Shown here in pieces: positions 17,301-62,650 of a stretch of DNA of 64,000 bases. Location of the stretch: contig CM075994.1 of NCBI GenBank assembly GCA_038087875.1, positions 6,264,001 through 6,328,000 of the forward strand, read 5' to 3'. Numbering within the stretch: the stretch's first letter is position 1; every line of letters begins with the position of its first letter. The stretch is from Malacoraja senta (lineage: Eukaryota). The position numbers and the translations under genes are program-made. The notes beneath the pieces are model-generated. The model saw only the letters and a program-made list of their open reading frames with translations. It searched no databases and was not told the DNA's origin.

Positions 17301-18230
17301 GTTTCCCATAATAGCGATACAGAAATACCCGGCGTATCATTTGTCTCGAAAATTTTTTTTGTTTGTTCGGCACGGACTTGAAGGGCCGAGATGGCCTGTT
17401 TCCGTGCTGTTATGGTTATGGTTATGGTTATGGTTTTATATACTCATAACACTGCGGGTTATTTAATATTTGTGCGTTGAATTTCCCAAAACATTTTATA
17501 CCCGGCATTCCCTCGATTTTAAGTATAAAAGTCAGTGGTGAATGATCGGAAATAATACTATTATGATATGATGGTTTAATTGTATACGGGATTAATTTTG
17601 TATCCACTAAGAAATAGTCAATTCGTGAATAAGTTTTATGAGGCGACGAGTAAAACGAATATTCCCTTCCAATTGGGTTTGCTATTCTCCAAACGTCAGT
17701 TATGTTATTATTTTTTATATAAGTATTTAAAAATTCACAGGTCTTGGTTTTAACTAGACGCTTCCCTACCTTTATTCATTTATCTAAGTATGGGTCTATA
17801 ACACAATTAAAATCTCCCCCAGTATAATATTTTGATAATTATGCTCTGCAATTATATCTACTATTTTCTTAAAAAATTGGGGATTATCAAAATTAGGCGC
17901 ATAAATATTTATCATAGTTAATGGTGTATTGTAAATTTCTCCCGTGACTATAACGTATCTTCCCTCTTTATCAGATATAGACTTCTTTAATATAAAAGGT
18001 ATACCTTTCCGAATTATAATGACCGTGCCTCTTGCTTTAGAAGTGAATGAGGTTTGACCTATCCAGTTTGCCCTTAATCTGATCTGCGTTTGTTGTTTCA
18101 AATGCGTTTCTTGTAGGAAAGCAATATCAATGTTTAATGATTTTAATAGTGCCAGAATTTTACCCCTCTTAATTGGCTCATTCGCACCTCTAATGTTCCA
18201 ACTACAAAAAGTGAGACCTCCGGTGTTTAT
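14382..18230 (-). pseudogene. L1 ORF2 (EN-RT-Cys-rich), broken by frameshifts and a CR1-tail insertion
   Basis: ORF pieces 17796-18101 (EN), 16322-17143, 15832-16230 (LYADD) and 14382-15821. Confidence 0.9.
17364..17435 (+). mobile_element. ~70-bp CR1 3' tail inserted in L1 copy A
   Basis: tgttcggcacggacttgaagggccgagatggcctgtttccgtgctg(ttatgg)n matches the tail at 874-935. Confidence 0.85.
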
Positions 18231-19157
18231 TCGACTATTATCTTGTATTGGCTATTATTACTAGAATGTATAATTCATGTGATGCAGCCAAGTACCTCGA
18301 AATCCCGAGTCCAGGGTTGTCCTTCATAATTTCTGCACTAGTTTTACATCTCCTGACACTATTAAACATAATTAAGGGAAAAAGAAAAACATAAAATGAA
18401 GTGTTCATAAAGATTGTTAAATCATACAACGCATAATAGTGAATAAACAAAAAAAGTGAATGTAAGTTATCAAAAAAGCGATATCTTACAAAAAAGCCAC
18501 CTATGGTGGCTAAGATTTGTTTTAAATTGACCTCCGTCGATGGAATTATGCACTGGGCTTTGTCCCCCTAGTAAAATATCATCCAACTTGGTTTCCTCCA
18601 ATTATAACCAAAATTATCGTGTCAGGTTGATTAATAGCCAAAAAATTTAAAATAAAATAGAAGAAAAGCTAGAAGATTTACAATAAAAAAAATAGAATTA
18701 TTATCATCATTAATCAGACTTTTCATTAGCCTGTATGTTAGTTGATTCGTAATTAGTATTTAGAATATCTGTCTAACCTCCCCCATCCTTCCTACTATAT
18801 AGTTAGTCATGTTAGTATAACATTAAACATTTAGGGTTAATTGAGTTTATTGCGTATATATAATTAATTAGTTAGTTAGTTATATGCTGTATATCTAAAT
18901 AATAGATCATATAGTACTAAGACAAAGGCAGACCAACAAGACTGTTATAAATTCAAAAAAGAACAGTCAATAAAGCTCAGGGCTGAAAAACTTGGCGCAG
19001 AGCCTGCGACCTTGAACGTTCCATCTGTTGAGCCTCAGTTTTTCAATTCAAGATAAAGTTAGGACTCTGTTATTAAAAAACACGTTCTGGCCAAATAAGT
19101 ATGTCTGAAAACCGTCTAAACAAAGTAAAAAACAAGTTCAGCCGGCGTAGTGTCACG

Positions 19158-20273
19158 TTATTCTTTTCCTTGAATTTTATTTAAAATCTCCTGGGCATAT
19201 TTGCAAGCTGAATCCGGATCCGTGAATGAACGTTGCTTAGCATTGTACGTAATTAACATTTTAGCAGGGTAGATAACACCGTAACGAACTTCAGAATGTC
19301 CTTGTAAGATACTACTTGTACTTTTAAACTGGCGTCTTTTTGCCAGTATTTCCCGAGAGTAGTCTCTGTAAAATCTAACAATATTATCAGCGAATGTAAG
19401 ATTTTCTCCATAAGATATCTTCTTTAATAAATTTTCCAAAGTCGAAATGTCTAAGAACTTTACGATAATTTGACGTGGTGGAGCATTCGCTCCTCTTTGG
19501 AAGCGACCAACACGATGAGCCACATCTATCTTTGTTTTTTCTGGCAGTTTGAAAACATCTTTAAGTAAATTATTGATAAAATCACCCATTTCAGAGTCGT
19601 GCTCTGCCCCCTCTTTAACTCCTATTATTCTCAAATTCTGCCTCCTTGACCTGGCTTCCAAATCTTGACATTTCTCATTCAATTTATTCGTCAGCTCCCA
19701 ATTCGCGTCGTGTTCTTTTTTCAAACCTGTTATTTCCTGGCCCATCTGCTGCATTTCACCCTCCATCTCTTCCATCAATTTTTCCGTCTTTGTTAATTGC
19801 TTCAGCAGGGAGTCATGTTTATTGTTATAATCTCTCTGCATTCTTTCCAATTCCTTAGCAGTCCTTGACTCCAAATCTTTGAACTGCTGGTTCAGGGATA
19901 CGTAAAGTTCCTTTAATTCTCCACAGCTAGTGTCAATTTTCTTAGAGAGATTATCCTCCATTGAAGAAAAATTGTTCTGCATTGTAGAATTCATTTTAGC
20001 AAATTGCTTCTGAAGATCTTTAGTAATGTCTTTAGTAATATTAACTCTTACCGATTCTTCCCAGCTTTTCATTTCTTTCTCCCTTTCTTTTAACTCTTTT
20101 GTTTCAGCTCTTGCAGCCATTTCGACTGTTGGATGTTGAGATTCCAGCTCCTCTTCCAAACTTTCAAAGGTAGATTCAGGAGTGGTTTCAAGCTCATCCA
20201 GAGCTTTTTGGAGCTGGAGCTGGAGACTGATTGTAGTCTTCTTCGGTCCTCTCTGACCTCTTCCCTTTTTCAT
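19158..20273 (-). CDS. L1 ORF1p (coiled coil + RRM/CTD), 371 aa
   Basis: DLEARSRRQNLRIIGVKEG, AHRV, PRQIIVKF, YPAKM. Confidence 0.92.
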   Translation of the reverse strand: MKKGRGQRGPKKTTISLQLQLQKALDELETTPESTFESLEEELESQHPTVEMAARAETKELKEREKEMKSWEESVRVNITKDITKDLQKQFAKMNSTMQNNFSSMEDNLSKKIDTSCGELKELYVSLNQQFKDLESRTAKELERMQRDYNNKHDSLLKQLTKTEKLMEEMEGEMQQMGQEITGLKKEHDANWELTNKLNEKCQDLEARSRRQNLRIIGVKEGAEHDSEMGDFINNLLKDVFKLPEKTKIDVAHRVGRFQRGANAPPRQIIVKFLDISTLENLLKKISYGENLTFADNIVRFYRDYSREILAKRRQFKSTSSILQGHSEVRYGVIYPAKMLITYNAKQRSFTDPDSACKYAQEILNKIQGKE

Positions 20274-21407
20274 CCGATTTTTACCGGTAAAATCGTTTTA
20301 AATCCCGATTCCACCGGCACCGTCTGATGACATCAATACCCACGAGGTTCAGCAATCCCGGTAAGAGTTTTTAAATCGATCCTGGCGTAGGAACCGAGTT
20401 TATACATGATTTGTCGGGAGCAGAGCTCTGTGCAGCTGTCTTACTGCTTCATAGCAGCCACCGGGAGTCTACCCCTTATTCTTAAACTGTGACCCCTGGT
20501 TCTGGACTTGCCCAACATCGGGAACAATTTTCCTGCATCTAGCCTGTCCATTCCCATAATCTATATTACTAAAAGTCTAATCTAGACCACTTCCTGTTGT
20601 TCTGTATATTGATTTTAGAAAAAAAAAAATGCCACTTACGGCTGTGATTTTGGGCCATCTTACTCGGAGTCCCCCTCTGCTGCGCAGGACAAGAGGATTT
20701 TTCCCATCGATGAAAAATAAAAGCGTCATTAGTGTTTAAAAAAAGTTGAGATTCTCTCTCCTGAAGGCCACGCCCCTTCCGGAGGGACTATAAAAACCCA
20801 GAAGTGTTGAGTGCCTCAGTCAGTCTCTGCAAGATGGGGCAGCGAGAGGGTCACATCTCTCAGTCTGAGCTGTGAATAACACTGAACATATGTCTACTAA
20901 ACTGTGAGTGACTTTACTGACCTGTCAGTACCCTCAATGTGGTTTGAAAATATAGTTTGGAAATGTTGTAGTTTGGAAATAAAGCTGTGTTGCCTTTGGT
21001 TTGGAAATGCTTTTTTTTAATTTATTTTTTTATTTGTATTTTATTAGAAGTACATTACATTACAACCACATACATTAGTACTTGTCATTTATATCTTCTT
21101 ACTATTAATGTACTCCATTTATTTTTTACACTAGAAAAGGAAAAGATTGAAAGAAAGAAGAAAGTGAAGGAAAAAGTGAAAGTGTAGGAAATGTGACAAC
21201 AAAAAAGGACGAAGACCCTATAAGAGCAAAATTAAAAACAAAAGAAAAAGAGTTAAGAAATAGACCCTAGGAAAGAAAGAAAGAGAGAAAGAGGAAAAAG
21301 AGAGAAACAAATATTTTTATGAGCATTACGTAAATGGGACATACCAACTCTTCAACTATCATCCCCCCTTACCTGACCTCAATTTTTTTTTAAAGTACTT
21401 TTGCACC

Positions 21408-24400
21408 CTATGTTTGTAATAATTCTATAAATGCAGACCACGTCAGGTGGAAGTGATCTGGTTTACCTGCTAGGAGGAGTCTTATCTCTTCTAGGTGTAA
21501 TGTTTCAAACATATTTGAAATCCACATATTTATAGTTGGTATTGGAGCCTTCTTCCAAAATTTTAGAATTAGCTTTTTTCCAGTTATTAACCCATAGTCC
21601 ATTAGTTTCTTTTGAAACACATTTAGTTCTGGACCATCTTCCGTTATACCGAAGATAATCCATTCTGCTTTGGGTATCAGTCTTGTTTTAAATAACTTTG
21701 TAAAGATTTCAAAAATTTAATTCCAAAATTTTTGAATTTTTGTACAAGAAACGAATGAGTGCGTTATGGTAGCTTCTTGGGATTGACATTTATCACAAAT
21801 AGATGATACATTTGGGAAAATTTTATGAATTTTAGTTTTCGAATAATATAATCTATGTAAAATTTTAAATTGTATTAAAGTGTGTCTTACATTAATCGAG
21901 CATTTATGCACGTTTAATAAGTATTCATTCCAACTTTCCTTTGAAATTTTAATAGCTAACTCTTGTTCCCAGTCTCTTCTGATACCCTCCGTAGATGGTA
22001 TTTGTGCATTTAAGATAATATTATACAAATATGATATTAAGTTTGCTGATTCCGCTTTTATCTGCATTGCCTCGTCCAGTACATCTGCTGGGTTATTATG
22101 ATGATCTTTTGTATATTTTTTCAAATAGTCGCATATTTGAAAATATGTAAAATATTGATTATTTCCGAGTTTATATTTTATTTGTAATTGTTGAAATGAA
22201 AGTAATTTTCCAGTTTCATACAAGTCACCAAGCGTTTTAATTCCTAATCTATCCCATTGTGTATAAGCTTTATCTATAATAGAAGGATTAAACGAAGGGT
22301 TATTGACTATAGGTAATAAAAGTGATAAATTTCTTCATTTTAAATTTTGTTTTATTTGTTTCCAAATTCGGATTGTACTATGAATAATTGGGTTCTTATT
22401 ATAATTTATGTTATTCAATTTCATTGGAGAGAGGAGGATCGCTCCAATGTTTCTAGAGGAGCAATCCTCTTTCTCCATTACAATCCAGTCCGCTTGCTGG
22501 GCGGAGTTATCCATCAGTTGAATCATATTTTTAATATTTACTGACCAATAATAATACATAAAATTAGGTAGTGCTAAACCCCCTAATACTTTAGGTTTAT
22601 TCAGATGAGTTTTTTGTATTCTATGTGATTTATAGTCCCATATAACATTAGTGATATCTGAGTCGAGTTTTTTAAAAAACTTCTTTGGTAAGTATATAGG
22701 AATTGATTGAAATAGGTATAAAATTTGTGGTAAAAAGATAATTTTTATTGCGTTTATTCGGCCTATTAAAGACATCGGGAGCGTTTTCCAGAATTTAATT
22801 AGTGTGTTTAATTTATTAAGTAAGGGGTCAAAATTTGCTCTAAACATACCTTGATATGATCTGGTAATTTCGATTCCCAAATATTTAAATTTTTCTGTAG
22901 CTATTTTAAAAGGGAATTTTAAAAGATGTGTTGAATCTTTCGGTTTTATTGACATAATTTCACTTTTATTCCAATTTATTCTATATCCAGAAAAAGATCC
23001 AAAATCTTCAATTAAATTTAATATATTTGGTATAGTGATTTGAGGTTTTGTAATGTACAGTAATATATCATCCGCGTATAAAGATATTTTATTATATGAA
23101 TCTTTAGTATTATATCCATGGATATCAGGGTGTATTCTAATTTTTTCTGCTAGCGGTTCAATAATGAGAGCAAACAGTTGTGGTGATAATGAGCATCCTT
23201 GTCTATTTCCCCTTGATAGTTGGAATTTCGAGGATAATATGTTATTAGTTAGTATTCTAGCTGTAGGTTTGTTATATAGTAACTTGATCCATAGAATAAA
23301 ATTCTCCCCCAGTTGAAATTTTTGTAATACTTTGTCCATATAATTCCATTCTACTTGATCAAATGCTTTTTCAGCATCCAGCGAAATAATTGATAATTCT
23401 TGATCTTCAGATTTGTGTGAGTGCATTATGTTGAGTAGACGTCTCATATTGTTAGATGAGTATCTCTTAGCGATAAACCCCGTCTGATCTGGGTTTATTA
23501 ATTTACTAATGTATTTACTTAATCTTCTAGCTAATGTTTTCGCTAATATTTTTTGATCTGTGTTTAACAATGCTATAGCTCTATATGAACCAGGTTCTTC
23601 TAAGTCTTTATTTTTCTTAGGTATTAATGTAATCGTTGATTCCGCTAATGTATCAGGTAGTATTCGTTTTTTAAAAGCATATTGGTACATTTTTTGTAAT
23701 CTTGGTATTATTTTATCGTAAAAGCTTTTATAAAATTCATTAGTAAATCCGTCAGGGCCTGGTGTTTTTCCATTCTTTAGTGAGTTTATTGTATCTTCTA
23801 ATTCCTTAATTGAGATTTGTGCACCCAATTCCTCTTGTTCCTTCAGTTCTAACTTTGGAAGATTACAGGTATCCAAGAACTTTGTGATATTATTGGAATC
23901 AATTGTCGTTTTAGATGTATACAAATTCTCATAAAATTGCGCAAATCTATTATTAATATCCTTTGGTGTTGTTAATAATTCCCCTTTATCTGATTTGATG
24001 TTTGGTATAGTATGTTCCTTTTCTCGTTTTTTTAGCTGGCGAGCCAAAGGTTTATGCGGTTTATCCCCAAATTCAAAGTGCTCTTGTTTTGTAATTTGAA
24101 AAAGTCTTATAAGTTTGGCAGATAATAATTTATTTAATTTAAATTTAAAAATTATTATTTTATTATGTTTATCTATTGATGGATCTTTAGCATTATCTAT
24201 ATCCATTTGTCTAATAAGTTCTTCTAACTGTCTTTGTTCATTCTTATTCTTTTCATTTTGAAAAGCTTGATATGAAATTATAATACCCCTAATGTATGCT
24301 TTAAAAGATTCCCATAATACAGTAGGCGATATATCTGGAGTATCATTTATTTGAAAAAAGACCTCCATTTGTTCTTTTAAATATATACTCGCTTGTGGAT

Positions 24401-25199
24401 CTTTTAGAATTTGAGAATTAAATCTCCAAAACGATTTATTCTTAGACAATCCTTCCAGTTTTAAAAAGAAAGTTAGTGGAGAATGGTCTGAAATCGAGTT
24501 TGTGTGGTATATTGCATTAGATGTTTGGGGGATTAATTTTGTATCCAGCAGAAAGTAGTCTATACGTGAGTATGTCTTATGTACCATTGAGTAAAACGAG
24601 TATTCCCTGCCAGTTGGATTAACAATTCTCCAAACATCTGCTATATTAGTGTTGTTTATATAGGTATTGAGAAGTTCCCCAGTTTTCGATTTCATATTCA
24701 CTCTCTGTTTTTGACTTGATTTATCTAAGTACGGATCTAAAACACAGTTAAAGTCTCCTCCTATTATAACATTTTGATAGTTTGACTCTGCAATTATGTT
24801 GAAAATTTTATTGAAAAAGTGGGGGTTATCAAAGTTAGGGGCATATATATTTACCAAAGTAAGTGGAGTATCATGGATTTCTCCATTAACTATTAGGTAT
24901 CTCCCTTCTATATCTGTTATAATATTCTTTGCTTTAAATGGTATACCTTTTCTTATGATGATTGACGTGCCTCTAGATTTTGAAGTAAATGAAGAATGGT
25001 ATGTTTGACCTATCCATTTCGCCCTCAACCTAACTTGATCCTGAGATTTTAGGTGTGTTTCTTGTAGGAAGATAATGTCGGAGTTGTACAATTTCAGCTG
25101 AGCTAGTATCTTACCCCTTTTAATAGGTTCGTTAATACCTCTTATATTCCAACTACAAAATGAGATTCCTCCTAGGTTCTTTTGTGTGGTGTCATGCAT
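21408..25199 (-). pseudogene. L1 ORF2, one frame of 1264 codons with two nonsense codons (22335-37, 21717-19); first 954 aa contain complete EN and RT
   Basis: SWNIRG, LQETH, GGDFN, SRIDY, SDH, LDAEKAFD, RQGCSLSP, LYADD; downstream ORFs 21717-22223 and 21408-21620 are in the same frame. Confidence 0.93.
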
Positions 25200-26024
25200 T
25201 TTTAATAATTATAGTACCTTTAAATCTTGTGGTGCATCCAAATCCCAGGTCTATAGGTATTGGGGGAGCTTTTGAGTTTTTAAGTTTTGCTGTTATGTCC
25301 ATTTTACGCTTATCACTAAACACAAAACACAAACAAGTGATTTTATGTGATAAAAAAAAAACTAAAAAAGTGAAGATACAGTGTCTGATATAGTCGGCAC
25401 TGTAGCGAGTGTCCCACCTGTAGGTGGGAAAAAACCTTGTTTTGACTTCCATTGCATTGTTACACAAATAGCTCCGCTCTCTTGGTTAATCATAACATAT
25501 TATAATATTAAAACGGGGCCTCACATTCAGATATATAATACACTTTTACCCTGTATGTTTCATTGTAACATATATATATATCGGAATTTTAACTACAGAT
25601 TATTAAACCGATACTTTTGACTTCAATAAGAATCAACTGATGGTTGAAGGGGTTAACGAGACGTGCCCCTGGACCTAAGCCAGTTGCTCGTTTCTCATCC
25701 CCTCCTCCCACTTATAGATAAGGTTTCAGTTTATTAAAATTCATATTAGTATGTTAGTTCGTTATTTTTTATTTTTGTTTTTATTAGTATTCTAATCTAA
25801 CATGCATAACTTATTAAGTTGTTAATAGGATAAGTTCTTACAATTGGTTATAATATTATAATCTAATAAGCAATTATATGCTTTCTGGTATATACCATTG
25901 CCATCTGTTCAGTTGTTTACTCGTTTTGAACAGAAAGTGTCCTTGATTCAACATTCCGAAGATAACAGTGTAACTATCCCCAGACAAAGCATTGCTTAAA
26001 ATGGTTCAGATCTCCCTTTCCTTT

Positions 26025-27173
26025 CTATTTTTCAACGATAGTTTGAGCATATTTAAACGCTTCTTCAGGCTTAACAAATGACTTTTCAAGACCCTTAAAG
26101 GAAATACGCATTTTCGCGGGATAAAAAATCCCAAATCTGATCCCTTCTCTCCCTCTTAAAAGATCTTTAACCTTCTCAAATTTGTTTCTTTTTTGCACAA
26201 TTTCATACGGGTAGTTCCTGAATATCTTAATAGTATCATTGTCCAGCCGCAGTTGCACACCGTATTTGATTTTACTCATAACATCTTCCAGTTCTAAAAT
26301 GTCCCGAAATTTCACAATAATATGTCGTGGATAAGTTTTTCCTGCACTAGATCTTTGTTTAAATCTTGGGACACGATGAGCCACTTCGATTTTCGGTTCT
26401 TTGGAAAGATTCAGCAGTTGTTTAAGCAAGCCCATGGCAGACTCACGTACATCCTCCCCTTCGGCTCCTTCTGAAACTCCAAGAATTCTCAAATTCTGGC
26501 GTCTAGAGCGAGCTTCCAGGTCCAGGCATTTGACTGAGACTTTCTCCAGTTGAGTCACCATCTGTAGTGAAGTTTGTTCGTTTTCTCGCCTCATTTGCTC
26601 ATGTTCTTGCCTCATTTTCGCCATGTCTTCAACCATTCGAGCCGTGTTTTTCTCCAATTCCGTAATTGTGCGCATACTTGCAGCTACTGTTTCAAGCACA
26701 GCCGTGAACTTATCCGTATTAGTTTCATCCATCTTGTCCATTCTCTCTGATAGTACATCTTTCACCTCATCAATTCGTTTATTCATAATGTCCAGTGAAT
26801 CAATCATATTCTTCTGGTTACCAGCATTTAATTCCCTCATCATCTTCTCCATTCCTTCCATCATTTTTGCCATATTTTCCTTCATTTCCTTCTTATCTTC
26901 CTTCATATTTTCCTTCATTTCCTTTTTATCTTCCTTCATATTTTCCTTCATATTTTCCATCATAATTTTATTTTCGTCCAAAATCTCATCTTTCATATTT
27001 TTCACTGATTTCTTCAAGTCATCAAACTCTTTCTTAGCTCTTGTATCCATTTTTGCAGCCACTTCAGAGACTTCAGAGACTTCAGAGGTAACTTCTGCTT
27101 CAGACTTCTTCTGGTCTTTCAGCAGCTTTTTCACTGCTCTCTGAGGGCTCACAGCTGGAGACAGTTTACTCAT
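26025..27173 (-). CDS. L1 ORF1p, 382 aa
   Basis: DLEARSRRQNLRILGVSEG, AHRV, PRHIIVKF, FYPAKM; repetitive coiled coil. Confidence 0.92.
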   Translation of the reverse strand: MSKLSPAVSPQRAVKKLLKDQKKSEAEVTSEVSEVSEVAAKMDTRAKKEFDDLKKSVKNMKDEILDENKIMMENMKENMKEDKKEMKENMKEDKKEMKENMAKMMEGMEKMMRELNAGNQKNMIDSLDIMNKRIDEVKDVLSERMDKMDETNTDKFTAVLETVAASMRTITELEKNTARMVEDMAKMRQEHEQMRRENEQTSLQMVTQLEKVSVKCLDLEARSRRQNLRILGVSEGAEGEDVRESAMGLLKQLLNLSKEPKIEVAHRVPRFKQRSSAGKTYPRHIIVKFRDILELEDVMSKIKYGVQLRLDNDTIKIFRNYPYEIVQKRNKFEKVKDLLRGREGIRFGIFYPAKMRISFKGLEKSFVKPEEAFKYAQTIVEK

Positions 27174-43682: not shown

Positions 43683-43752
43683 ATGGCCAGGAGAGTTCCT
43701 GGGATTCACTCCCTCATCGGGATACTTTGGCTGCTGTTGAGCGACTCTGGAG
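43683..43752 (+). CDS. CD2/SLAM-like gene exon 1 (signal peptide)
   Basis: gacATGG Kozak; MARRVPGIHSLIGILWLLLSDSG; phase-1 donor AG|GCGAGT (GC-type). Confidence 0.68.
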
Positions 43753-44176
43753 GCGAGTCCATGCCTTGAGCTCGGGGTGCGGGTGGCGGTAGGGTGGAAG
43801 AAGCTGTGCTATATAGAACAGTACAGCACACGAACAGGCCATTCAGCCCACAACATCCATGCCGAACATGATGCCAAGTTAAAGTAAACTCCACTGCCGC
43901 ACATAATCCATATCTATGCATTCTCTGCAGAACCATGCACCTTTCTAAAAGCCACTTAAACCCCACTATCGTATCTGCCCTCCACCCGCCACTTCTGGCA
44001 GCGCATTACAGACACCCACCACTCTTGGTGTAAACATGTGGTGCCCCAGTTCCCTCCCACATCCCCAAGGTTGGAGGTTAATTGCCCGCAGTGCGTATGG
44101 AGCGGATGCGAAAGTGGAATAATGTAGAACTGGTATGATCGGTTGAGTCGGTGGGCTGAGTAGCCTGTTTCCAAGC

Positions 44177-44213
<37 letters not shown>

Positions 44214-44261
44214 GCCTGCCTCTGTCTGTCTGTCTGTCTGTATTTATCCATCTACTTATTC

Positions 44262-44890
44262 AGGGAGTACAAATACCTGGGAGTGCACCTGAACAGTAAA
44301 CTGGACTGGTGCAGGAACGTTGAGGCCCTGTACGAGAAGGGACAGAGCCGCCTGTACTTTTTGAGAAGGCTCCGCTTCTTCAATGTCTGCAGTAAGATGT
44401 TGCAGATGTTCTACCAACTGGTGGTAGCCAGTACCATCTTCTTCACTGCCATGTGCTGGAGCAGCAGGGCGAATGCAGCGGATGGCAACAGGATCAACAA
44501 ACTCATCAGGAAGACTGGCTCCATCCTTGGGGCAGAGTTAGATTCATGGGAAGTGGTCTTGGAGTGGAGGATGCTCCTCAAACTGCGTAGCACCCTGGGC
44601 AATACAGCTCACCTGCTCCATGACACACTGGTCAACATGAGGACCACCTTCAGCAACAGATTGGTTCCACCAAGATGCAGCACAGAACACCACAGGAGAT
44701 TAATCTTCCCTGTGGCTATCAAACTTTACAACTCCTCCCCCTCTGTCGTGGGGTAGACTGAGACTGACACCCCCCCCCCCTTAATCTTTGCACATCCCGA
44801 AAGCCTACCATTTGTCACTTTATTTTAATGTTTCATGTTTAATTATTTTATGACTGTTACCAAAATAATTACCCTCCTGGGATAAATAAA
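44262..44890 (+). mobile_element. Rex1/Babar LINE 3' fragment
   Basis: YKYLGVHLNSKLDW…KGQSRLYFLRRLR…FPVAIKLYN; gggataaataaagtt tail. Confidence 0.85.
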
Positions 44891-45254
44891 GTTCCATCAT
44901 TTCGTATCGTATCTATCTAAAAGCTTTTCAGTGTACCTCGGTACATGTGACAATAAACTAAACTATCTATCTATCCATCCATCCATCCATCTACCTATCT
45001 ATCATTCTACCTATCTATCATTGTGTCTATTATATTTATCTATTTTATCTATCTATTCTATCTAGTTTATCTATCTATCTATTTAATTTATCAATCTAAT
45101 CTATCCATCCAGACTGGGTTAAATCACAACCTCCAGAAATGTCTGTGTGGAGTTTGCATATCTCCCTGTGACTGACCCTTGCTAACTCTTGTGATCTTGC
45201 TAAATTATGTGAGGTGATGCCATGGGTAGACCTACTGTCCTTGTCCATCAGTCG

Positions 45255-46216
45255 AGGGGGCACCGTCGAGTATGGCTGCTCTGCCTGCAGCTGTCTGTCC
45301 TGTTCACCATTTTTTGTTTGTACTGTGCTAATAGTTTTGTTTTGGAGGTCAAATCTTTGTTGTGTGTGTGTAGGGGGGGGAAGGGGGAAACTGTACTTCT
45401 CGGTCCCTACCTGATCGGAGTTGCGGTTTTCCTCCGAGCTGCATCTTCGCCCCTTCATCACGGCTTACCAGTAGCATGCGGTGGCGTTTCCTGCTGGGAC
45501 CGGCCGGCCAGAACTTCAACTTAGGCGGCGGCTCAGCGCTGAAGCACCATCCCGCAGCGGGCAATACCTTACCCGGGTCGCCGTGTGGTAAGCTCCGGAG
45601 CGCTGAGACCGCCGACTCCAACATCGCGGAGCTGCAGGGTCTGCGGAGCGTCCAGCTGCGGCGGCACTGACTCTGAACACCACGGAGCCTGGGATCTTTC
45701 GCCGCGATCGCCAGTGTCGGAGCTCCGACCAGCGCGGCCTGTAGACTTCAGGAGCCCCGGTCTCCGGGGAGGAAGCGGCCGTTCCAGACACTCCAAGCCG
45801 CTGAGAGTGTTCTCCCGACGCCGGAGCTCCATCATCCGGCGAGAGGGCCTGCAACATCGGGCCTCAGTTGCGGCGACTGCGGAGGCCTCAATAGGCCTGA
45901 CCATGGGTGAACAGGAGGGAGAGGACTGGACTTTGTTGTCTTCCCTCACAGTGGGAACCATTGCGGGGGGGATGTTTATATGTTTTATGTTAAATTCTTT
46001 AATGTTGTGTTTTATTTTTGGTGTGCTGCAGATGGCTCGGAAAACATGGCTGCTGAAGGTGAGAGTGAATGCTGGCGTGATTGGCTGCCGCTGCTCTCTC
46101 TCCGAATTGTGTATTGTTGCTGTATATGTTGTTTTTGTTTCATGCTTGTTTTAACTGTAAGGTGTCCTTGAGAGTCCTGAAAGGCGCCCTATAAATAAAT
46201 GGTATTATTATTATTA
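45255..46216 (+). mobile_element. GC-rich non-coding retro-element, copy 2, with L2-type 3' tail
   Basis: Body similar to 28540-29240; ends tgtaaggtgtccttgag…gaaaggcgccctataaataaatgg(tat)n. Confidence 0.6.
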
Positions 46217-46305
46217 GGGTTGGGACAACTCACTGCTGTGCTGGGAAACTATGAACACCAACACACCACAGCTGATGGCACTAATATCTTGTCCTTGTGT
46301 TTCAG

Positions 46306-46635
46306 GTCTGGGACAGACTGCTGGGAAACCAGGCACTCGTCGCTTGGTGAAAGGGACACTGGGACAGTCAGTCACGTTACCAGGATGTATCTCAGGAGAA
46401 TACATTTCAATCCTTACTTGGGATTACCGCAATTCACCAACAACAGGAAAGGTTCAATTATGTACGAAATCTCAAAACAATCCAATACAATATAACAAAC
46501 AGCGGATCAAGTTAAACCTGAAGGACTGTAGTCTGGAAATACAGAACCTAACAGAACACGATCAAGGTCTATATGAAATGAACTTAAGGATGAATCTTGC
46601 TGTCCATGAACATGTGACAGAACTGAAGATTTATG
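46306..46635 (+). CDS. CD2/SLAM-like gene exon 2 (IgV domain)
   Basis: tgtgtttcag| and G|gtaat, phase 1-1; LVKGTLGQSVTLP…W…SLEIQNLTEHDQGLYEM…ELKIY; canonical F-strand Cys absent, as in many CD2-family V domains. Confidence 0.9.
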
Positions 46636-47259
46636 GTAATCTATTTCAATTAAAAAAATGGTACACTTTCCATTATAACAACCTTTAAGAACTTAAAGGT
46701 GTAAGGGGGGATGCTTTCGATGTGCGCCCAAGTCTGTGGGTTATACGGGCAGGGTGAATACTGAAACATTACATGGGTCGGAGTCCTTGCTTATTTAGGA
46801 ACCCATCCTCAGTATTTGCCGTTTGAATATTAATGGAGGTGCATTAGGATGGGTTCTTGAATGGAGATCTCTCTAAGCCATCTGACTTCTGTGGAAGATG
46901 ATAGGTCCACAGACATTCAACTTTCTCTGCTAATAACGAGTTTACTTGTGATCTCGTTTTGGTGGCAAAGTGTAACCTGGACGATCCATTTTTGTAAACT
47001 CACGGGAAGGATTTTGCACTAAAACTAGGTGCTTGTCTGTAAACAGTTTGTAAATTGTCCGTCGTGGGTGTAGAATAGTGCCAGTGTGCGGGGATCGATG
47101 GTCGGCGAGGACTCGGTGGGCCGAAGGGCTTGTTTACGCTGTATCTCTAAACTAAACCAAACAGTCTTCTACTCTTAATGTTCTTGTGGTAAACTCATGG
47201 CTAGCAGCTTCTGGTTGTTATTATTCCATGGCTTGTATTTGTGCTTTTTTTTAAAACAG

Positions 47260-47550
47260 AACGAGTGTCATTACCAGTAATAAATATCACAGAAGCCGTC
47301 ACTGACGGGGTGTGTAACGTTAGCTTGCTATGTTCACTGGAGCACGGCACCGAGCCAGTCTACACTTGGTGGTCAGGAGATGGCAAGGTCGCGGCAGATG
47401 GGTCGCACATACTGACTGACGAAGGGAGAAGGCTGGCACTATCCATAGCTCTACCCAACAACAACAGCGTGTATAACTGCACCGTGGAGAACCCTGTTAG
47501 TGAGGAGACACGGACCGTGGATCTCACAGAGTTCTGTCCTGCCCATGAAG
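47260..47550 (+). CDS. CD2/SLAM-like gene exon 3 (IgC2 domain)
   Basis: ttttaaaacag| and AAG|gtttgt, phase 1-1; VSLPVI…CNVSLLCS…YTW…YNCTVENPVS…C, the four-Cys SLAM C2 signature. Confidence 0.92.
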
Positions 47551-48554
47551 GTTTGTGCCTTCATCTTTTCACAGTAAGCACATTTCTCAAATAAAATAAG
47601 GGCTATTTATTTCATTCCTATTCAAATCTCCAAATCCTTCCGATGGAATAAATCATGTAATAGATGTAGTATAAACAGGCACAAAGTGCTGGAGTAAATG
47701 TCTCAGCGGGACAGGCAGCATCTCTGGAGAGAAGGAATGGTTGACGTTTCGGGTCGAGAAGAAGGGCCACGACCCGAAATGTCGCCCAATTCCTTCTTTC
47801 CAGAGAAACAATTTTCGGATAAAAAAACAACATCTGCAGTTCCTTCCTGCACAATATATTTAGCTTAGTTTAGTTTAGAGATTCAGCATTGAAACGGTCC
47901 ATTCGGCCCACCGAATCTGCGCCGACCATCGATCACCCGTACACTAATTCTATCCTACACGTTAGGGACAATTTACAGAAACCATTTAACCTGCAAATCT
48001 GCATGTCTTTGGGCTGTGGTCTAAACCGGGGACATAACGCACACGCTCACAGGGAGAACGTACATACTCCGTACAGACAGCATCTGTAGAAAAGAACGAC
48101 CCGGATCTCTGGTGCTCTGAGGTAGCAACGCTACCGCTGAGTTACTCCAGCATTGTGTGTGTATCTTCGGTGTAAACCAGCATTTGCAGTTCCTTCCTAC
48201 GCAAAAGGAAAAATAAGCTGTGTGCAAAAAAACAGACATGAATGCAGAAATACACAATCAGAAAACAAGTCCATGGTCTATAGTCTTCCATTGGCGAGGT
48301 TGGACTTGAATTATGCAGGTTGGTTCAAGACCCTGATGGTTGCAGAAAAGTACCTTTAACGATAGAGAGGCTGGAGGTGCTGGAATCTTGAGCAAAAATC
48401 AGTGCTGAAAGAATTCAGCGGGTCAGGCAGCTTCTGTGGAGGGAATGGTCTGAAAAAGGATCGATTTCCCTCCCGAGATACTGCCTCACCCATCGATTTC
48501 CTACGGTACATTAAAAAAAAAACCAATAGCTTTAGCTGCTTCTCCCTACGTTTG

Positions 48555-48820
48555 CCTTACAGCGCTTAAACCCAGATGCGATCCCGACTACGGGTGCTGT
48601 CTGTCCGGAGTTTGTACGTTCTCCCCGTGACCGCGTGGATTTTCTCAAAGATATTTGGTTTCCTCCTACACTCCAAAGATTTACAGGCCTGTGGGTTAAT
48701 TGGCTTCTGTATACGTGTGAATTGTCCCTTGTGTGTGTAGGATAGTGTAAGTGTGCTGGGATCACTGGTCGGGGCAGACTCGGTGGGCCGAAGGGCCTGT
48801 TTCTACGCTGTATCTCTAAA
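48555..48820 (+). mobile_element. tRNA-derived SINE; representative of many copies (e.g. 32485-32770, 34345-34625, 52105-52285, 53585-53730)
   Basis: Family has A/B-box-like head (GTTCGATCC), core GGAGTTTGTACGTTCTCCCCGTGAC and CR1-like tail GGGCCGAAGGGCCTGTTTC. Confidence 0.75.
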
Positions 48821-49224
48821 AAGGAAACTATCTAAAAATAAAACTATCATAGCTCAGCCTCTCCAGTCTAAATTGTAACTGCATTTTCCATTTTAAGCAA
48901 ACATTATTGAACAGGCGTCTGAAACCATGAGAGGAATAGATCGGGTGAATGCACAGAGTCATCTACCTTGTGTAGAGGAATGGAGAACCAGAGGACGTAG
49001 GTTTAAGCTGAAAGGGGAAGGATTTAATAGGAACCCAAGGGGCAACGTTTCCCACAGAGGGTGACGGGTACATGAATGAGCAGAGGAGGTAATTGGGGCA
49101 GTTACTATAAAATAATTTAAAGCCATTTGGACAAGTACATTGTTAGGAAAGTTTAGAAGGATATAGGCCAAAGGCGGGCATATGGGGCTAGCTTAGATGG
49201 GACATCATGGGGTGAAGGGCAGTA

Positions 49225-49720
49225 TTGCCTTCTTGCATGACCCGTAAGCAATCGCAGCGAATTGTGGACGCAACCCAGGCCTTCACACAAACCAACCTCC
49301 CTTCTATCGATTCCATTTATACCTCACACTGCCTCGGCAAGACCAGCAGCATAATCAAGGACGATTCGCGCCCTGGCCACACCCTCTTCTCCCCTCTCCA
49401 ATCAGGCCAACGGTATAGAAGTGTGAAAACGCACACCTCCAGATTCAGGGACAGTTTCTTCCCAGCTGCTATCAGGCAACTGAATCATCCTTCCACAAGC
49501 AGAGAGCAGTGCTGAACTATGACCTACCTCTTTGATGTCCCTCGGTCTATCCTTGACCAGACTATCTTGCACGAAACGTTATTCCCCTATCATGTATCTA
49601 TACACTAGAAATGGATTGATTGTAATTGTGTATCGTCTTTCTGCTAACTCGATAGCACGCAACCAAAAAGCTTTTCACGGTAACTCGGTACACGTGACAA
49701 TAAACTAAACTGAACTGAAC
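49225..49720 (+). mobile_element. Rex1-like LINE 3' fragment (similar copy at 50960-51360)
   Basis: LPSIDSIY…IIKD…FRDSFFPAAIRQLN; gtgacaataaa tail. Confidence 0.8.
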
Positions 49721-49793
49721 CGAACTCTCTGATTCTGTTCCTATGCACCAACAAATCAATAGATTGGCAACTGAAAATGTGATCTCTCTTCAG

Positions 49794-49903
49794 GTTATAA
49801 GCCACTGAGAGTCTCAAGCCGTGTACTTTTTACAGCCGCCACAATCATCTTCATCTCATCTATCTTTTGCTACATGTATTGCAAGAGGACAAGCTCAGCA
49901 CAG
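49794..49903 (+). CDS. CD2/SLAM-like gene exon 4 (transmembrane)
   Basis: ctctcttcag| and CAG|gtcagt, phase 1-0; GYKPLRVSSRVLFTAATIIFISSIFCYMYCKRTSSAQ. Confidence 0.85.
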
Positions 49904-52404
49904 GTCAGTACCTTAGAATGTTATTCTTTGTCCAATTCCAGGTAATAACCTGTAACCCATCTCCCCCCACCCCTCCCCTCCATTCCCTCTGCCTTACAAG
50001 TTTGTGCGCCTATTTCTCCCACTATCCCTCCCCTAATCCTTCAAGGATTTGACCGTGGATGGAATGCGCCAAGAATTAATTGGTGAAACTGTGGATATGC
50101 GAGAGGCTTGGATAGAGTGGATGTGGAGAGGATGTTTCCACTAGTGGGAGTGTCTAGGACTCCAGGTCATAGCCTCAGAATTAAAGGACGATATTTTAGG
50201 AAGATGAGGAGGAATTTCTCTTGTCAGGGTGGTGAATCTGTGGAATTCTTTGTCACAGAAGGCTGCGGAGGCCGTCAATGGATATTTTTATGGCAGAGAT
50301 GGATTCTTGATTACTACGGGAGTCAGGGGTTATGGAGAGCAGGTAGGGTAATTAGGTTAAGAGGGGGATATAGATCAGCCATGATTCAACCGGAGTAGAT
50401 TTGATGGGACGAATGGCATAATTCTGCTCCTGTCACTTACGACCTTATGGGAGGCCAAAGATGATGGTTTCTGCGGGGATTATAGGGCTGTTTGAAACAA
50501 TAGGCAGGCAGGGGCTAGATTGGGATGGGACATAAATGTAATTTAAAAATACACCAAAGCAATGTTGTCCTATTAGTGAGGCGAGCTGCAGATAGTTGAA
50601 CTCGTGTGGTTTGGACCCTGGCTGCAGATGCTGTCACATTCTATCGCCCACTGCGGTCCCAGACCACACGTAGCGTGAACAGAAATACGCGTGTGATCGG
50701 ATAAACAGATGGGACTGGAACAAGATGCAGCAGAGAGGGCAGTCAGTGTTTAAAGGTACCAACCACATCGTATTTAAGTTGACAAACCCACAGTAACATC
50801 CTCTGACAACAACATTCTGCCTTTTTTCTGTCTGCAATTCTCTAAAGTGAAATGTCGTGGCGGTGACCGATAAGGCATAATCAGAAAAGGACACAAAGTG
50901 CTGGAGTAACTCAGCGGGTCTGGCAGCATCTCTGGAGAGCACGGAAAGGCGACACAGTACTGCTCACGCTGCCACGGCAAGGCCAGCAGCATAATCAAAG
51001 ACGAGTTACAACCTGGCCACTCCCTCTTGTCCCCTCTCCAACGAGGCAAAAGGTACAGAAGTGTGAGATCGCAGACATCCAGATTCAAGGACAGTTTATT
51101 CCCAGCTGTTATCAGGCAACTGAACCATCCGACCACAACCAGAGAGCAGTGCTGATCTACTATCTCCCTCATTGGCGACCCTCGGACTATCCTTGATCGG
51201 ACTTTGCTGGTTTTACCTTGCACTAAACGTTATTCCCTTATCACTGTAAATGACTCGATTGTAATCGTGTGTATTGTCTTTCCGCTGGCTGGTTAGCACG
51301 CAACAAAAGCTTTTCTCTGCACCCCAATTCAGATGACAATAAACAAAACTGTAAACCAAACTGTATTGTACTGGGTCGAGACCTTTCTTGAGACTAATTT
51401 AGTGGAGGTGGGGGAGAACAAGGATGGAAAAGGGGGAGAGGCACGACAAAGTGTGGCAGGTAAAAGGGAGACAGAGGTGAGTGGGGAGCTTGATAGGCAG
51501 GTAGAGTCATAGAGACATACAGCGTGGAAACAAGCCCTTCGGCCTAACTTGCCCACACCGACCAACATGCCCCATCTACATTAGTCCGACCTGCCTGCAT
51601 TTGGCCCATATCCTTCCAAACCTGCCATATCCATGTACCTGACTAATTGTTTCTTGAACGTTGCAATGGTCCCTGCATCAACGTTCATGACTGGAAATAT
51701 GTATTTGAAGGAACTGCAGATGCTGGTTCAAACCATAGGTAGGCACAAAATGCTGGTGTAACTCAGCGGGACAGGCAACATCTCTGGAGAGAAGGAATGG
51801 GTGACGTTTCCAGTCGAGACCCTTCTTCTACTGAAAATATCCTCTTCGCGTCCGTTTCTTCTCGACCTTTCATTATTTGGTAAGTTTCAATGAAATCCTC
51901 CCCTCATCCTTCTAAACTCCAGCGAGTACAGGGTCTTCAAATGCTCCTCATACATTAACCCAATCATCCCTGGGATCATGCTCGTAAACCTCCTCTAGAC
52001 CCTCTGCAATGCGAGCACATCCTGCACATCCTTCCTCAGTTATGAGACCCAAACCTGTACACAGTATTGCAAATGTGGCCTCACCAACACCTTAGAAGTT
52101 AATGGAGCCAATTAACCTACAAACCTGTACATCTTTTGAGTGCGGCAGGAAACCGGAGCACCCGGAGAAAACCCACAGGTTCAAAGGGAGAACGTGCAAA
52201 CTCAGTAAATGCAGCACCCGAGGTCAGGATCGAACCTGGGTCTCCGGCGCTGTAAGGCAGTAACTCTACGGCTGTGCCACCGTGCGACGTACAGCACAGA
52301 AACTGGCCCTTCGGCCCAATTTCCCATGTCATCAAATGCTCCTCATATGTTAACCCAATCATCACCAGGGCCATTCTCGTATCCCTTGCACTGTGCGTTA
52401 CAAG

Positions 52405-52950: not shown

Positions 52951-52999
52951 GCTTGAAAGAAGGGAGAAAAATGGCCCACTGACATTCTTCCCTTTCAAG

Positions 53000-53471
53000 C
53001 CACAGAGAGATTTATGTGAACTGGATGCCAGTGGAGGAGAGGAAACATAGAAACGTAGAAAATAGCTGGAGGAGTAGGCCATTCGGCCCTTCGAGCCAGC
53101 ACCGCCATTCAATATGATCATGGCTGATCATCCAAAATCAGTGCCCCGTTCCTGCTTTTTTTCCCATATCCCTCGATCCCTTTGGCCCTAAGAGCTAAAT
53201 CTAATTCTCTCTTGAATACATCCAGTGAATTGGCCTCCACTGTCTTCTGTGGCAGAGAATTCCACAGATTTACAACTCTCTGGGTGAAAATGTTTTTCCT
53301 CAACTCCGTTCTAAATGGCCTACCCCTTATTATTAAACTGTGACCCCCTGGTTCTGGACACCCCCAACATCGGGATCATGGGGAATTTTTTTCCTGCATC
53401 GGAAAATCGGAAGGCACAGCTCACCACGATATACGATAAGATAAAATTTAATCCCGATCTGGACACTGCAG
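53000..53471 (+). pseudogene. CD2/SLAM-like gene exon 5 (ITSM exon), disrupted by CR1
   Basis: Removing 53046-53405 gives phase 0-1 PQRDLCELDASGGEENRKAQLTTIYDKIKFNPDLDTA(G); as assembled, TAG at 53048-53050; donor CAG|gcagga. Confidence 0.78.
53046..53400 (-). mobile_element. 5'-truncated CR1 inserted in exon 5
   Basis: FTQRVVNLWNSLPQK…; CR1 tail repeat; GGAAA at 53041-45 and 53401-05. Confidence 0.9.
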
Positions 53472-53737
53472 GCAGGAACGAACGAGGGAAAGGCGCTCTC
53501 TGCCCAACGTTTATCGTTCGATGCATCAAATCTAACCACCTGCTTGAATTGTGCCTTGAATTTAGATTAGTTTAGAGATACAAATGGTGGCGCAGCGGTA
53601 GAGTTGCCACCTTACAGCGCCAGAGACCCTGGTTCGATCCTGACTACGGGTGCGGTTTTGTACGCATTTTACATGTTCTCACGTCACCTGTGTGTCTCCT
53701 CCCTGTTTCCTCCCACACTTCAAATACGCAGCTTGAC

Positions 53738-58762: not shown

Positions 58763-60130
58763 AGGGCCAGAGTTGACAGTACTGGCATTCTGAAAATGTA
58801 TGTTTTAGTACAGACTTAATTCTAAGTGCCTGTTTGACACATAGGCAGTATGACGATGGTCGTTTAACCTTGCAACTTAGCGTAGTAGCCTTTGATCACC
58901 CCAAAATAAGTCAGGCCTATAGCCTTTAGGCTTGGATAAAGACGAAAGGCAGCAGGAGCATCGTCTTTTTTCCCCCTTTTTTCATATATAAAAGTATAAA
59001 TTATAAATCATCTCTCCAAAATGTATTCTCACAAATCAGGAGCCAAGAAAAGAAAAGACAAGAAAGATCTAGAGGAAAATGAACAAAGGGGTCAACACAC
59101 GCTCTTTCAATTTGGATTAAGTGCGGTTTCAAAAATGTTTTCATTGAACTCACCTATAGAATTGGAGCAAGAAGAAACTGTTGGAAACCTCATCCACAAA
59201 CAAGGAGCAGTTGATCTGGGTAATCATGCACAGGATTTTGATGAAGGGGCAGATGCAGAAAATGAAAAAGGAAAACAGAAAGAAACAGACTTACAGGCAC
59301 ATGTGGAAGTGAATTTGGAAGACGAGAGGAGTAATTATAATGTACACCTTGACATTGGATGTATCACAACCGAGTTTCCATCTCAAAAGGAAATAGAAAG
59401 GTATGTTACGAATGGTCACATCCCTCTGCCTAAAACATTCCCAAAAGACACCTGCAATCAAGTTTTCCCAGAAAGCATACTGACATTTCAAAGCACCAGT
59501 GGAGAACTACATGTAAGAGAGTGGCTTGTCTGGAGTCAACAGAAACAAGCATTATATTGCTTTCCATGTCGATTACTTTTGCACAAAAAGGTCAAGACTA
59601 GCATTTCTGCATCTACATCTGCACTGGTATCTGCTGAAGGCTGGGATTCTAATGGGAAGTGGCGGAAACGTTCCTACAGGATCCCAAAACATGAAAAAGG
59701 CAATCGTCACAGAATGTTACCTGGCTTGGGGAGAACTGGAAAGACGCCTGCTGTCTGGGACGGGAGTTGACGCCATCTTTGAAGCATCAATCAAAACTGA
59801 AGCTGTGAAATGGTACAATCTTTTAAAGCGCATCATCGATGTTGTACTCTTCTTGGGAGAAGGTGGTCTGGCATTTACTGGTTCATCCCATCGAATTGAT
59901 GATTCAAACACTGGAAACTTTATAGGACATTGAACTGCTCTCCAGGTGGGACCCCATCTTTCAGGAACATGTACTAAATGTAGAGGAGTCATAGAAAAGG
60001 AGTGAGCAGCTTCAAGTTCATTATCTGTCCCCTGACTCACAAAATGAATTCATTGCAGAGTGCTTGAATCTTGTGAAACAACACATTTTGCTTGAGAGGC
60101 AATCTGCAAAGTACTTTGCAGTAATAGTAG

Positions 60131-60132
<2 letters not shown>

Positions 60133-60202
<70 letters not shown>

Positions 60203-60548
60203 GACAGAGTTGACGTGGATAAGCATTTTCCATTGAGAGTAGGGAAGATTCAAACAAGAGGACATGATTTGAGAATTAAGGGACAGAAGTTTAGGGGTAA
60301 CATGAGGGGGAACTTCTTTACTCAGAGAGTGGTAGCTGTGTGGAATGAGCTTCCAGTGGAAGTGGTGGAGGCAGGTTCGATTTTATCATTTAAAAATAAA
60401 TTGGATAGGTATATGGACGGGAAAGGAATGGAGGGTTATCGTCTGAGTGCAGGTAGATGGGACTAGGTGAGAGTAAGTGTTCGGCACGGACTAGAAGGGC
60501 TGAGATGGCCTGTTTCCGTGCTGTAATTGTTATATGGTTATATGGTTA
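60133..60548 (+). mobile_element. 5'-truncated CR1 with (AAT)~23 at its 5' junction, inserted in the hAT transposase
   Basis: TAGAT at 60128-32 and 60549-53; same family as the CR1 at 6301-7126. Confidence 0.9.
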
Positions 60549-61810
60549 TAGATGCCACACCAGATTCCTCCCATATTGAACAAACAACATTTATTTTGAA
60601 ATACGTACTTTTAAAAGAAACGCAGTATGAGATTCAAGAAAGATTTCTCAAGTTTGCAGATTGTAGCAACAAAAGAGGGGAAGAAATTACTCAGTTGATA
60701 ACTGATACATTGAAAGAACATGCTATTCCTCAGTGATTGTAGAGCTCAAGCCTATGATAATGGGGCAAATATGGCAGGAAAATACAACGGCGCACAAGAA
60801 AAAATACGTGAACAATGCTCAACAGCAATTTTTTCACCTTGCGGTTGTCACACACTCAACTTGTGTGGAAATGCTGCTGCTGAATGCACACCTGAAGCAA
60901 TAACCTTTTACAGAACAATTCAAACTGTGTACCACCTGTTCAGTTCCAGTCCTAAGCGGCGGAAATTTCTACAAAACCGTATGGCTTGTTCACTTAATGG
61001 TATGTCTGAAACAAAATGGTCAGATCGTGTTATATGTGTAAAGCCTTTTGCAGCTCACTTGCCTGGCATTAAATTAGCACTGGAAGACCTCCTAGAACTA
61101 AATTTGACGGCCAAAACAAGAAATGACGTCCATGGAAATTTATTACATGTGACATCTTTTGCCTGTGTTAATGTCAGCTGTGTGGTACAAAATATTACCT
61201 GGCATAGATATTTGCAACATGGTCATTCAAGCTAGAGACGCCACACTGGATGTTGAAGCCGCAAACATAGAAACTCTCCTCATAGATCTGACAAAACTTC
61301 GAAACAACTGGAAATCCATGTGGAATGAAGCTAAATCAGTTAACCTAAAGATAGAAATAAAACTCTCCCTTCGATGTGGTGGAGTTAGGTGCAAGAGGGC
61401 AAGGCTGCATGATGACAGCACACCTGATGCTAACTTGGAGGAAATGAATGACACAGATGATACGCCAGAAGAGGCCTACTTCAGAAAGTGTATGTTTTAT
61501 GTTTTGGTAGACAATGTTACAACAGGATTAACTGTCCGCTTCAATGATGTTAAGCAGTTGGCAGAAATTTTTGATTTCTTGTGGAAATATCTCACCATGT
61601 CTGAAAGTGATGTTGAGAGAAAAGCTTTATCTTAATCAGAGCAATATCCTGCTGACCATAATGGTGACGATTTTGGAAAAGAAATACAACATTTACCCTC
61701 AGTACATAAAGCTAATTTTGTAAATGCACAGTTAAAGCCATTAGATCTGTTGAACTTGTTAACAGAGTACAGACTTCATGACCTGTTTCCAAATGTTTGT
61801 GTTAGCTTAA

Positions 61811-62522: not shown

Positions 62523-62650
62523 GCTGCAGCTCATGGCATAAAACCGTAGTGGATAAAAACAGGCAAAATGGAGAAGGAAACTTTGTAGCCACTGATAAAA
62601 TTCCTCTCAGAGGCCCTGCTGACTGTGATGATAATGTCTCCAACAAATGA
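62523..62650 (+). CDS. CD2/SLAM-like gene putative terminal exon 6
   Basis: ccttttggccttacag|, phase 1: (G)CSSWHKTVVDKNRQNGEGNFVATDKIPLRGPADCDDNVSNK*; AATAAA at 62767-72; stop conserved in paralog at 8150. Confidence 0.6.

Follow-up and report, generated by a model that had tools for sequence, protein, structure and literature searches.

The question raised by this locus is whether a retroelement has cut the signalling motif off an immune receptor. The window, i.e. the whole 64,000-nucleotide stretch of Malacoraja senta DNA analysed here, holds a SLAM-like receptor gene (gene B) in which the exon encoding TIYDKI is split by a 355-bp antisense CR1-like LINE 3' end. Based on sequence comparison, we favour, at a probability of roughly 0.6, the reading that gene duplications multiplied an old CR1 insertion lying in the one-time signalling exon of a short-tailed subfamily whose genes end at an upstream exon. 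The features of the gene are as follows.

43683-43752, plus strand: exon 1, signal peptide of the short-tailed type; its donor is GC, with GT in five other copies.
46306-46635, plus strand: exon 2, IgV domain (Pfam V-set, E 3e-8; splice sites).
47260-47550, plus strand: exon 3, second Ig domain (C2-type).
49794-49903, plus strand: exon 4, short-tailed-type membrane segment ending in KRTSSAQ; phase-0 GT donor, with a second possible donor after 49941.
50628-50678, plus strand: candidate alternative last exon, MLSHSIAHCGPRPHVA and a stop; by-eye match to the tail annotated in Rhinoraja P0036.
50848-50880, plus strand: likely short-tailed last exon (GNVVAVTDKA and a stop in Leucoraja and Amblyraja).
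51338-51343, plus strand: AATAAA, candidate polyA signal upstream of the CR1-hit exon; kept in 4/4 copies checked, which chance could also give.
53000-53045, plus strand: 5' piece of the ITSM exon, reading PQRDLCELDASGGEE; second frame HREIYVNWMPVEE.
53046-53400, minus strand: 5'-truncated CR1-like LINE with ORF2 end, 3' UTR and two octamer tail units; common to paralogs D, E and G.
53398-53405, plus strand: 8 extra nt, in the window copy only; origin of the apparent GGAAA duplication.
53406-53553, plus strand: remaining 3' part of the ITSM exon; TIYDKI at 53426-53443, 2 bp deleted near 53470.
62523-62549, plus strand: exon 6 of the initial annotation (AAAHGIKP and a stop), unsupported.

Read directly from the window, GGAAA stands at 53041 and 53401 with 355 bp in between, which confirms the minus-strand insert that the initial annotation described inside the TIYDKI exon. 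The frame from the acceptor at 52999/53000 gives PQRDLCELDASGGEET and meets a stop codon at the CR1 edge, and TIYDKI lies 3' of the insert. The contiguous exon that excision had been said to restore does exist in relatives: two paralogs hold the empty exon, and that of gene A reads SGGEQNRKAQLTTIYDEIK. The reads also support the insertion, in that a short-read contig (run X1) spans the 5' junction, with 45 letters to one side of it and 33 to the other; another X1 contig is 197/197 identical to the window. X1 derives from organism A, which is the same as or very close to the source organism, and possibly from the source sample itself. An assembly artefact was considered and is ruled out by the diverged paralogs sharing the insertion and by the bridging contig. 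A possible acceptor behind the CR1 (AG before CTC ACC ACG), seen by eye only, is in frame and could rescue the ITSM.

The insert is, judged from its sequence, the 3' end of an abundant minus-strand LINE. Its translation is 49% identical over 61 aa to a LINE ORF at 3-815 of the window, indicating the C-terminus of ORF2; that ORF overlaps in sequence an RVT_1-positive ORF (4038-4475), and the insert itself gave no Pfam match. The two octamer units at 53046-53061 constitute its 3' microsatellite tail, and since other genomic copies extend past its 5' end, it is 5'-truncated. We take the family to be CR1, as opposed to the related L2-like clades. Among the 40 of 13881 genomic candidates that were scored, the closest non-paralog copies are 88-92% identical, with no near-identical sister element. 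The available text on CR1 LINEs (PMC4316615) describes 5' truncation, an octamer microsatellite at the 3' end and the ORF2 C-terminus, and the window insert is alike in all three. As an element it is ordinary, one of many, and only its exonic position is notable. Elsewhere in the window, an AT-rich stretch (14385-27173, minus strand) carries large LINE-like ORFs, a 382-aa ORF1-like one and a 957-aa endonuclease/RT-like one broken by stops, presumably nested L1/Tx1-type elements, and the transposase-like ORF pieces downstream of the gene (59000-61632) resemble what we take to be a hAT/ZMYM-type transposase.

That GGAAA is a target-site duplication, as initially proposed, is doubtful on comparison of the copies. 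The empty site reads GAG CAA AAT CGA AAG GCG. The 5-nt duplication occurs in 1 of 4 filled copies, that of the window; D, E and G lack both it and the 8 additional nt. In these three the insertion site has no net gain, the element being joined by GAAA microhomology at its tail and ATC at its 5' end. Two indels common to B, D and E but absent from G favour a later 8-nt duplication in B, whereas the intron 4 distances place D closer to G; such a late origin, in B only, is thus favoured but not settled by the sequences. A target-site duplication is not obligatory for a CR1 LINE.

Exons 1-4 (43683-49903) form a 267-aa open frame, and the 283-aa protein of the initial annotation is borne out, with 16 further aa, provided that exon 4 is joined to 53000. 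Its statement that the other exons are undamaged holds for stops and frameshifts, of which there are none, but not for the exon-1 donor, which has changed from GT to GC, for the LYAVI exon, which is absent, or for the region after TIYDKI, which has lost 2 bp. The exon-1 donor, AG/GCGAGT (43753-43760), is otherwise a near-perfect donor match. About 15-18% of GT>GC donor changes retain a degree of normal splicing, and strong pairing with U1 makes this more frequent (10.1101/479493). The change may lower expression of the window gene. The membrane exon of gene A also appears to use a GC donor. Gene A and each of the five short-tailed copies have a second donor-like site, CCAG/GTAAT, 38-39 nt behind the membrane exon (window 49904-49949); used in the window gene, it would set the CR1-hit exon in the IYVNW frame, reading into the CR1.

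The downstream end of the gene needs revision. Exon 6 at 62523 was rejected, the piece being conserved in no paralog. An exon end at 53471 does not hold either, since the ITSM exon continues to its own stop (...HRLSSDT) in gene A and six database proteins, and RNA-like contigs from two runs span 53403-53562 without a break, crossing 53471. The lack of support for exon 6 and the run-on to HRLSSDT together identify the ITSM exon, by sequence, as the last coding exon, although a spliced 3' UTR is possible. Under the exon-junction rule, a stop without a downstream junction is not a classic trigger of NMD. Since the stop at the CR1 edge lies in the last coding exon and no coding junction follows it, the proposal that the transcript is an NMD target fails.

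We surveyed 380 kb around the window and found seven full V-domain exons in addition to partial ones, together with six copies of the ITSM exon. Four of the six carry the CR1 at the same base (B in the window, D, E and G) and two are empty (A and C); F, the fifth short-tailed copy, has lost the whole exon. The CR1 copies differ by p 0.08-0.13, compared with 0.07-0.13 for the introns. Genes D and E flank a 200-N gap (G000:C18:6427500-6478000, L018-L023) and share 99.6% identity across about 24 kb; they may be one locus assembled twice, a false duplication, so we count three independent filled copies. At about 90% identity, a contig of organism H (run X17) runs from the B-type upstream intron through the exon piece into the first 20 nt of the CR1 tail; it is one contig of depth 4.3, and its reach into the CR1 is below the 31-letter bridging threshold. 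The related-species comparison that had been suggested thus yields a likely filled site. In this same contig the AG acceptor has become CG. From organism D (X8) we obtained one empty gene-A-type contig and one ambiguous 59-nt contig. Being common to diverged paralogs, the insertion predates, by sequence, the paralog duplications, and with the organism H contig it likely predates a species split; these are relative ages.

Pseudogene pieces in the cluster comprise copy C and partial cassettes. Copy C (G000:C18:6360918-6374450, L012-L013) is a mosaic pseudogene with an empty CR1 site. Its signal exon is of the short-tailed type and its membrane exon of the gene-A type, its V and C2 cassettes are broken, the LYAVI exon is absent and 2 bp are deleted after TLYDEI.

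Two types of gene can be distinguished in the cluster. Gene A (minus strand, G000:C18:6196200-6262500) is intact, with an ITIM-like exon (LYAVI) and an ITSM-bearing last exon. It matches the gene-A-type database proteins (e.g. P0005, P0017 and P0038), which have an extra exon, APNTERRSEPPLYAVIGR..., followed by PQRHL...TIYDEI...HRLSSDT and a stop in one exon. The LYAVI exon was found only in gene A of the cluster. The short-tailed type, B, D, E, F and G, has its own signal and membrane exons and no LYAVI exon; in its intron 4, the sequence behind the membrane exon continues directly with what in A lies about 0.5-0.7 kb before the last exon, implying that the LYAVI exon was deleted in these copies.

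The short-tailed membrane exon is present in 5 of 42 database proteins, from Leucoraja, Amblyraja and Rhinoraja (two skate families) and from one Logan contig. Four end in GN(V/A)VAVTDKA and a stop, one uses the acceptor matching window 50628, and none enters the PQRDL exon. The RefSeq models among them are predictions; P0003 lies on a 1063-nt Logan contig, into which an unspliced gene would not fit. When the C-terminus of the short-tailed type was used as a query, P0004 and P0003 were the only matches. The RefSeq entries named signaling lymphocytic activation molecule-like (Leucoraja erinacea XP_055522191-3, Amblyraja radiata XP_032903632, Rhinoraja longicauda XP_078272149) share the membrane exon of the window gene, with 82-90% V-domain identity for the skate hits; its closest named proteins at large are skate SLAM-like ones (81-90% identity in the V domain). 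They differ in the upstream last exon at 50848, which begins with TGA in the window gene and in all five copies here, so that the protein would end at SSAQ, and with Gly in the other skates.

All three candidate tails of the window gene lack tyrosine motifs, whereas the ITSM (TxYxxV/I) is present in gene A. An IgV domain, an IgC2 domain and a membrane segment make up the SLAM/CD2 layout, and for the relative P0005 the best two-domain PDB match is SLAMF6 (E 1.5e-12), with CEA scoring higher on one domain. Because the ITSM is absent, as it also is in SLAMF8/9, SLAM/CD2 membership of the window gene rests on its homology to gene A. SAP did not stand out in a genome-wide SH2 search.

Gene A has features of its own. 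Some 49 kb separate its V exon from its likely first exon (L038, G000:C18:6262390-6262500, minus strand), which stands head-to-head with the window gene. Two frames of the ITSM exon appear to be in use (L032, G000:C18:6196230-6196403, minus strand; window 53000-53045): isoforms skipping the LYAVI exon read HRDIYVNWMPV...RYTMR and a stop, and such isoforms are annotated in the sawshark Pristiophorus as well as in Leucoraja, Amblyraja and Rhinoraja. When gene A is compared with the sawshark, 22 of the 28 determinable codons have the same third position in the ITSM frame, with unbroken runs of 12 and 9. The YVN of the second frame is presumably a Grb2-type motif. These sequences may reflect a conserved switch in which the choice of frame yields either an ITIM/ITSM tail or a YxN tail, with the caveat that sharks have slow substitution rates, and such a switch may be of more interest than the CR1.

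The 801-nt frames are open, with AG acceptors, in 5/5 short-tailed copies, while the introns have collected 5-11 frameshifting indels per 801 nt per pair. By arithmetic from this intron rate, about 14 such indels are expected over the coding frames of B, D, F and G, and none is seen; a threefold discount for intron slippage still gives P near 0.01. The dN/dS comparison that had been proposed gives 0.62-0.98 among the short-tailed copies, a weak sign of purifying selection, and 0.41-0.60 against gene A. The differences among the copies cluster in the V domain; F lacks one C2 cysteine and G has an Arg inside the membrane segment. Spliced V-C2 contigs occur in RNA-like runs of two organisms, and short-tailed membrane-exon contigs in a third. 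The first transcript-contig comparison was swamped by repeats and contained no exon 4 junction, and RNA-like run X23, which holds only gene-A-type pieces of the ITSM exon, is not counted as evidence. With frames intact while introns collect frameshifting indels, the short-tailed genes probably encode working receptors that have no tail, alongside a single intact gene with ITIM and ITSM. The signalling-dead receptor of the initial annotation survives as the likely reading.

As for the cause of the tail loss, the stop lies at the CR1 edge on the DNA, but that the CR1 cut off the ITSM is unproven: short-tailed genes of other skates end at the upstream exon, bypassing the CR1-hit one. This bypass in 5/5 database proteins favours the CR1 as a passenger, and so do signs that the exon is decaying: 2 bp and 30 bp have been deleted behind the ITSM, F no longer has the exon, and in the organism H contig the acceptor is CG. 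In the sequence of events that we propose, an ancestral copy would have deleted about 9.5 kb including the LYAVI exon, a short last exon and polyA site would then have been recruited from intron sequence, and the bypassed ITSM exon would have taken the CR1 and begun to decay. The resulting proteins would act in the manner of SLAMF8/9 or CD48/CD58, as ligands, adhesion partners or decoys, and would interact with gene A or with its ligands but recruit no SAP/SHP-type proteins. Counting against the bypass, the acceptor and 5' exon piece (76 nt) show three changes among B, D and G, and 1 of 52 intron windows is as conserved, which hints that the exon is still spliced; the choice of these 76 nt had a biological rationale, but was made once the data had been seen. 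Either order of exon bypass and CR1 insertion is possible.

The same conservation, together with the phase-0 donor of exon 4, which fits the ITSM frame, would suit a distinctly less probable history in which the CR1 was the founding event: it would have put a stop into an ITSM-only receptor, the truncated exon, reading PQRDLCELDASGGEET and a stop, would still serve as a last exon that escapes NMD, and the tail-less gene would then have been amplified as a decoy subfamily. The CR1 is indeed in 4/4 short-tailed copies retaining the exon, and an AATAAA lies within the insert (53332). However, no short-tailed database protein (0/5) uses the CR1-hit exon, the exon is lost in F and its acceptor broken in the organism H contig, and both the loss of the LYAVI exon and the new membrane exon are independent of the CR1. 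Slightly more tentative is the extended version of this history, that a single CR1 hit founded a skate-specific family of tail-less SLAM decoys, its ligand-binding domain diversified beside one signalling partner, as a paired-receptor system. A recent or polymorphic insertion giving an NMD null allele, as the initial annotation had entertained, could draw on the stop and on the apparent GGAAA duplication in the window copy, but is highly improbable: the insertion is common to diverged paralogs, whose CR1 copies are 8-13% diverged just as the introns are, and is present in a contig of another organism, likely another species, and the affected exon is the last coding one; nor did the 40 of 13881 candidates scored include a near-identical sister element.

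Another reading, an unlikely one, makes the short-tailed copies, with that of the window among them, pseudogenes of recent origin whose frames gene conversion has kept open, the CR1 being one lesion among several. Such a view could explain dN/dS near 1 in several pairs, the GT>GC donor in B, the lost Cys in F, the Arg in the G membrane segment and the true pseudogene pieces nearby (C and the partial cassettes), but it leaves five 801-nt frames without a frameshift or stop against about 14 expected. Moreover, signal and membrane exons unlike those of gene A are not repairable from it, and the type is annotated in two skate families and present in RNA-like contigs. Compatible with either history of the CR1, and a shade less likely than the pseudogene reading, is a role as activating paired receptors that would use an ITAM adaptor through an Arg conserved at the outer edge of the membrane segment, by analogy with FcR-gamma-pairing receptors. 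An Arg precedes or lies in the membrane segment in 9/9 short-tailed sequences examined, it is inside the best hydrophobic window in Rhinoraja P0036, and the clustering of copy variation in the V domain would fit; in B, D, E, F, P0003 and P0004, however, the best 19-residue hydrophobic window begins after the Arg. In G and P0018 a second Arg lies inside that window.

The bypassed-exon reading can be set beside known systems. According to PMC4718992, SLAMF8, SLAMF9 and CD48/SLAMF2 have a short tail without an ITSM and are clustered with ITSM-bearing relatives; the skate genes are alike in IgV, IgC2 and membrane segment, short tail and missing ITSM. Unlike SLAMF8/9, they form a recent skate-specific expansion, their ectodomains are about 90% identical to that of the signalling gene, and a dead ITSM exon is still downstream. 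In the accessible text of PMC13709765, the TE-derived decoys IFNAR2-S, IL18R1-Short, IL13RA1-LOR1a and sPD-L1 likewise link a retroelement to a lost intracellular signalling part of an immune receptor; these are isoforms of one gene, an intronic element supplying the splice or polyA site, whereas the skate CR1 sits in a coding exon of separate paralogs. This likeness requires the truncated exon to be part of the mRNA; the stop is seen here on DNA, and none of the RNA contigs listed shows it. Xenopus has short-tailed paired receptors that are FcR-like, not SLAMs, in the part of PMC2413239 available.

We found no paper on skate or shark SLAM clusters, or on this locus, in the open-access literature. 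In the skate cluster, a single SLAM-like receptor with ITIM and ITSM stands beside several near-identical copies that have no tail. Paired and decoy receptor families are known to be laid out in this way; for cartilaginous fish, no such description was found in open-access papers. The CR1 provides a usable presence/absence marker for ordering the steps of tail loss. If it caused that loss, the skate genes would be a DNA-level counterpart of the TE-made decoy isoforms of mammals.
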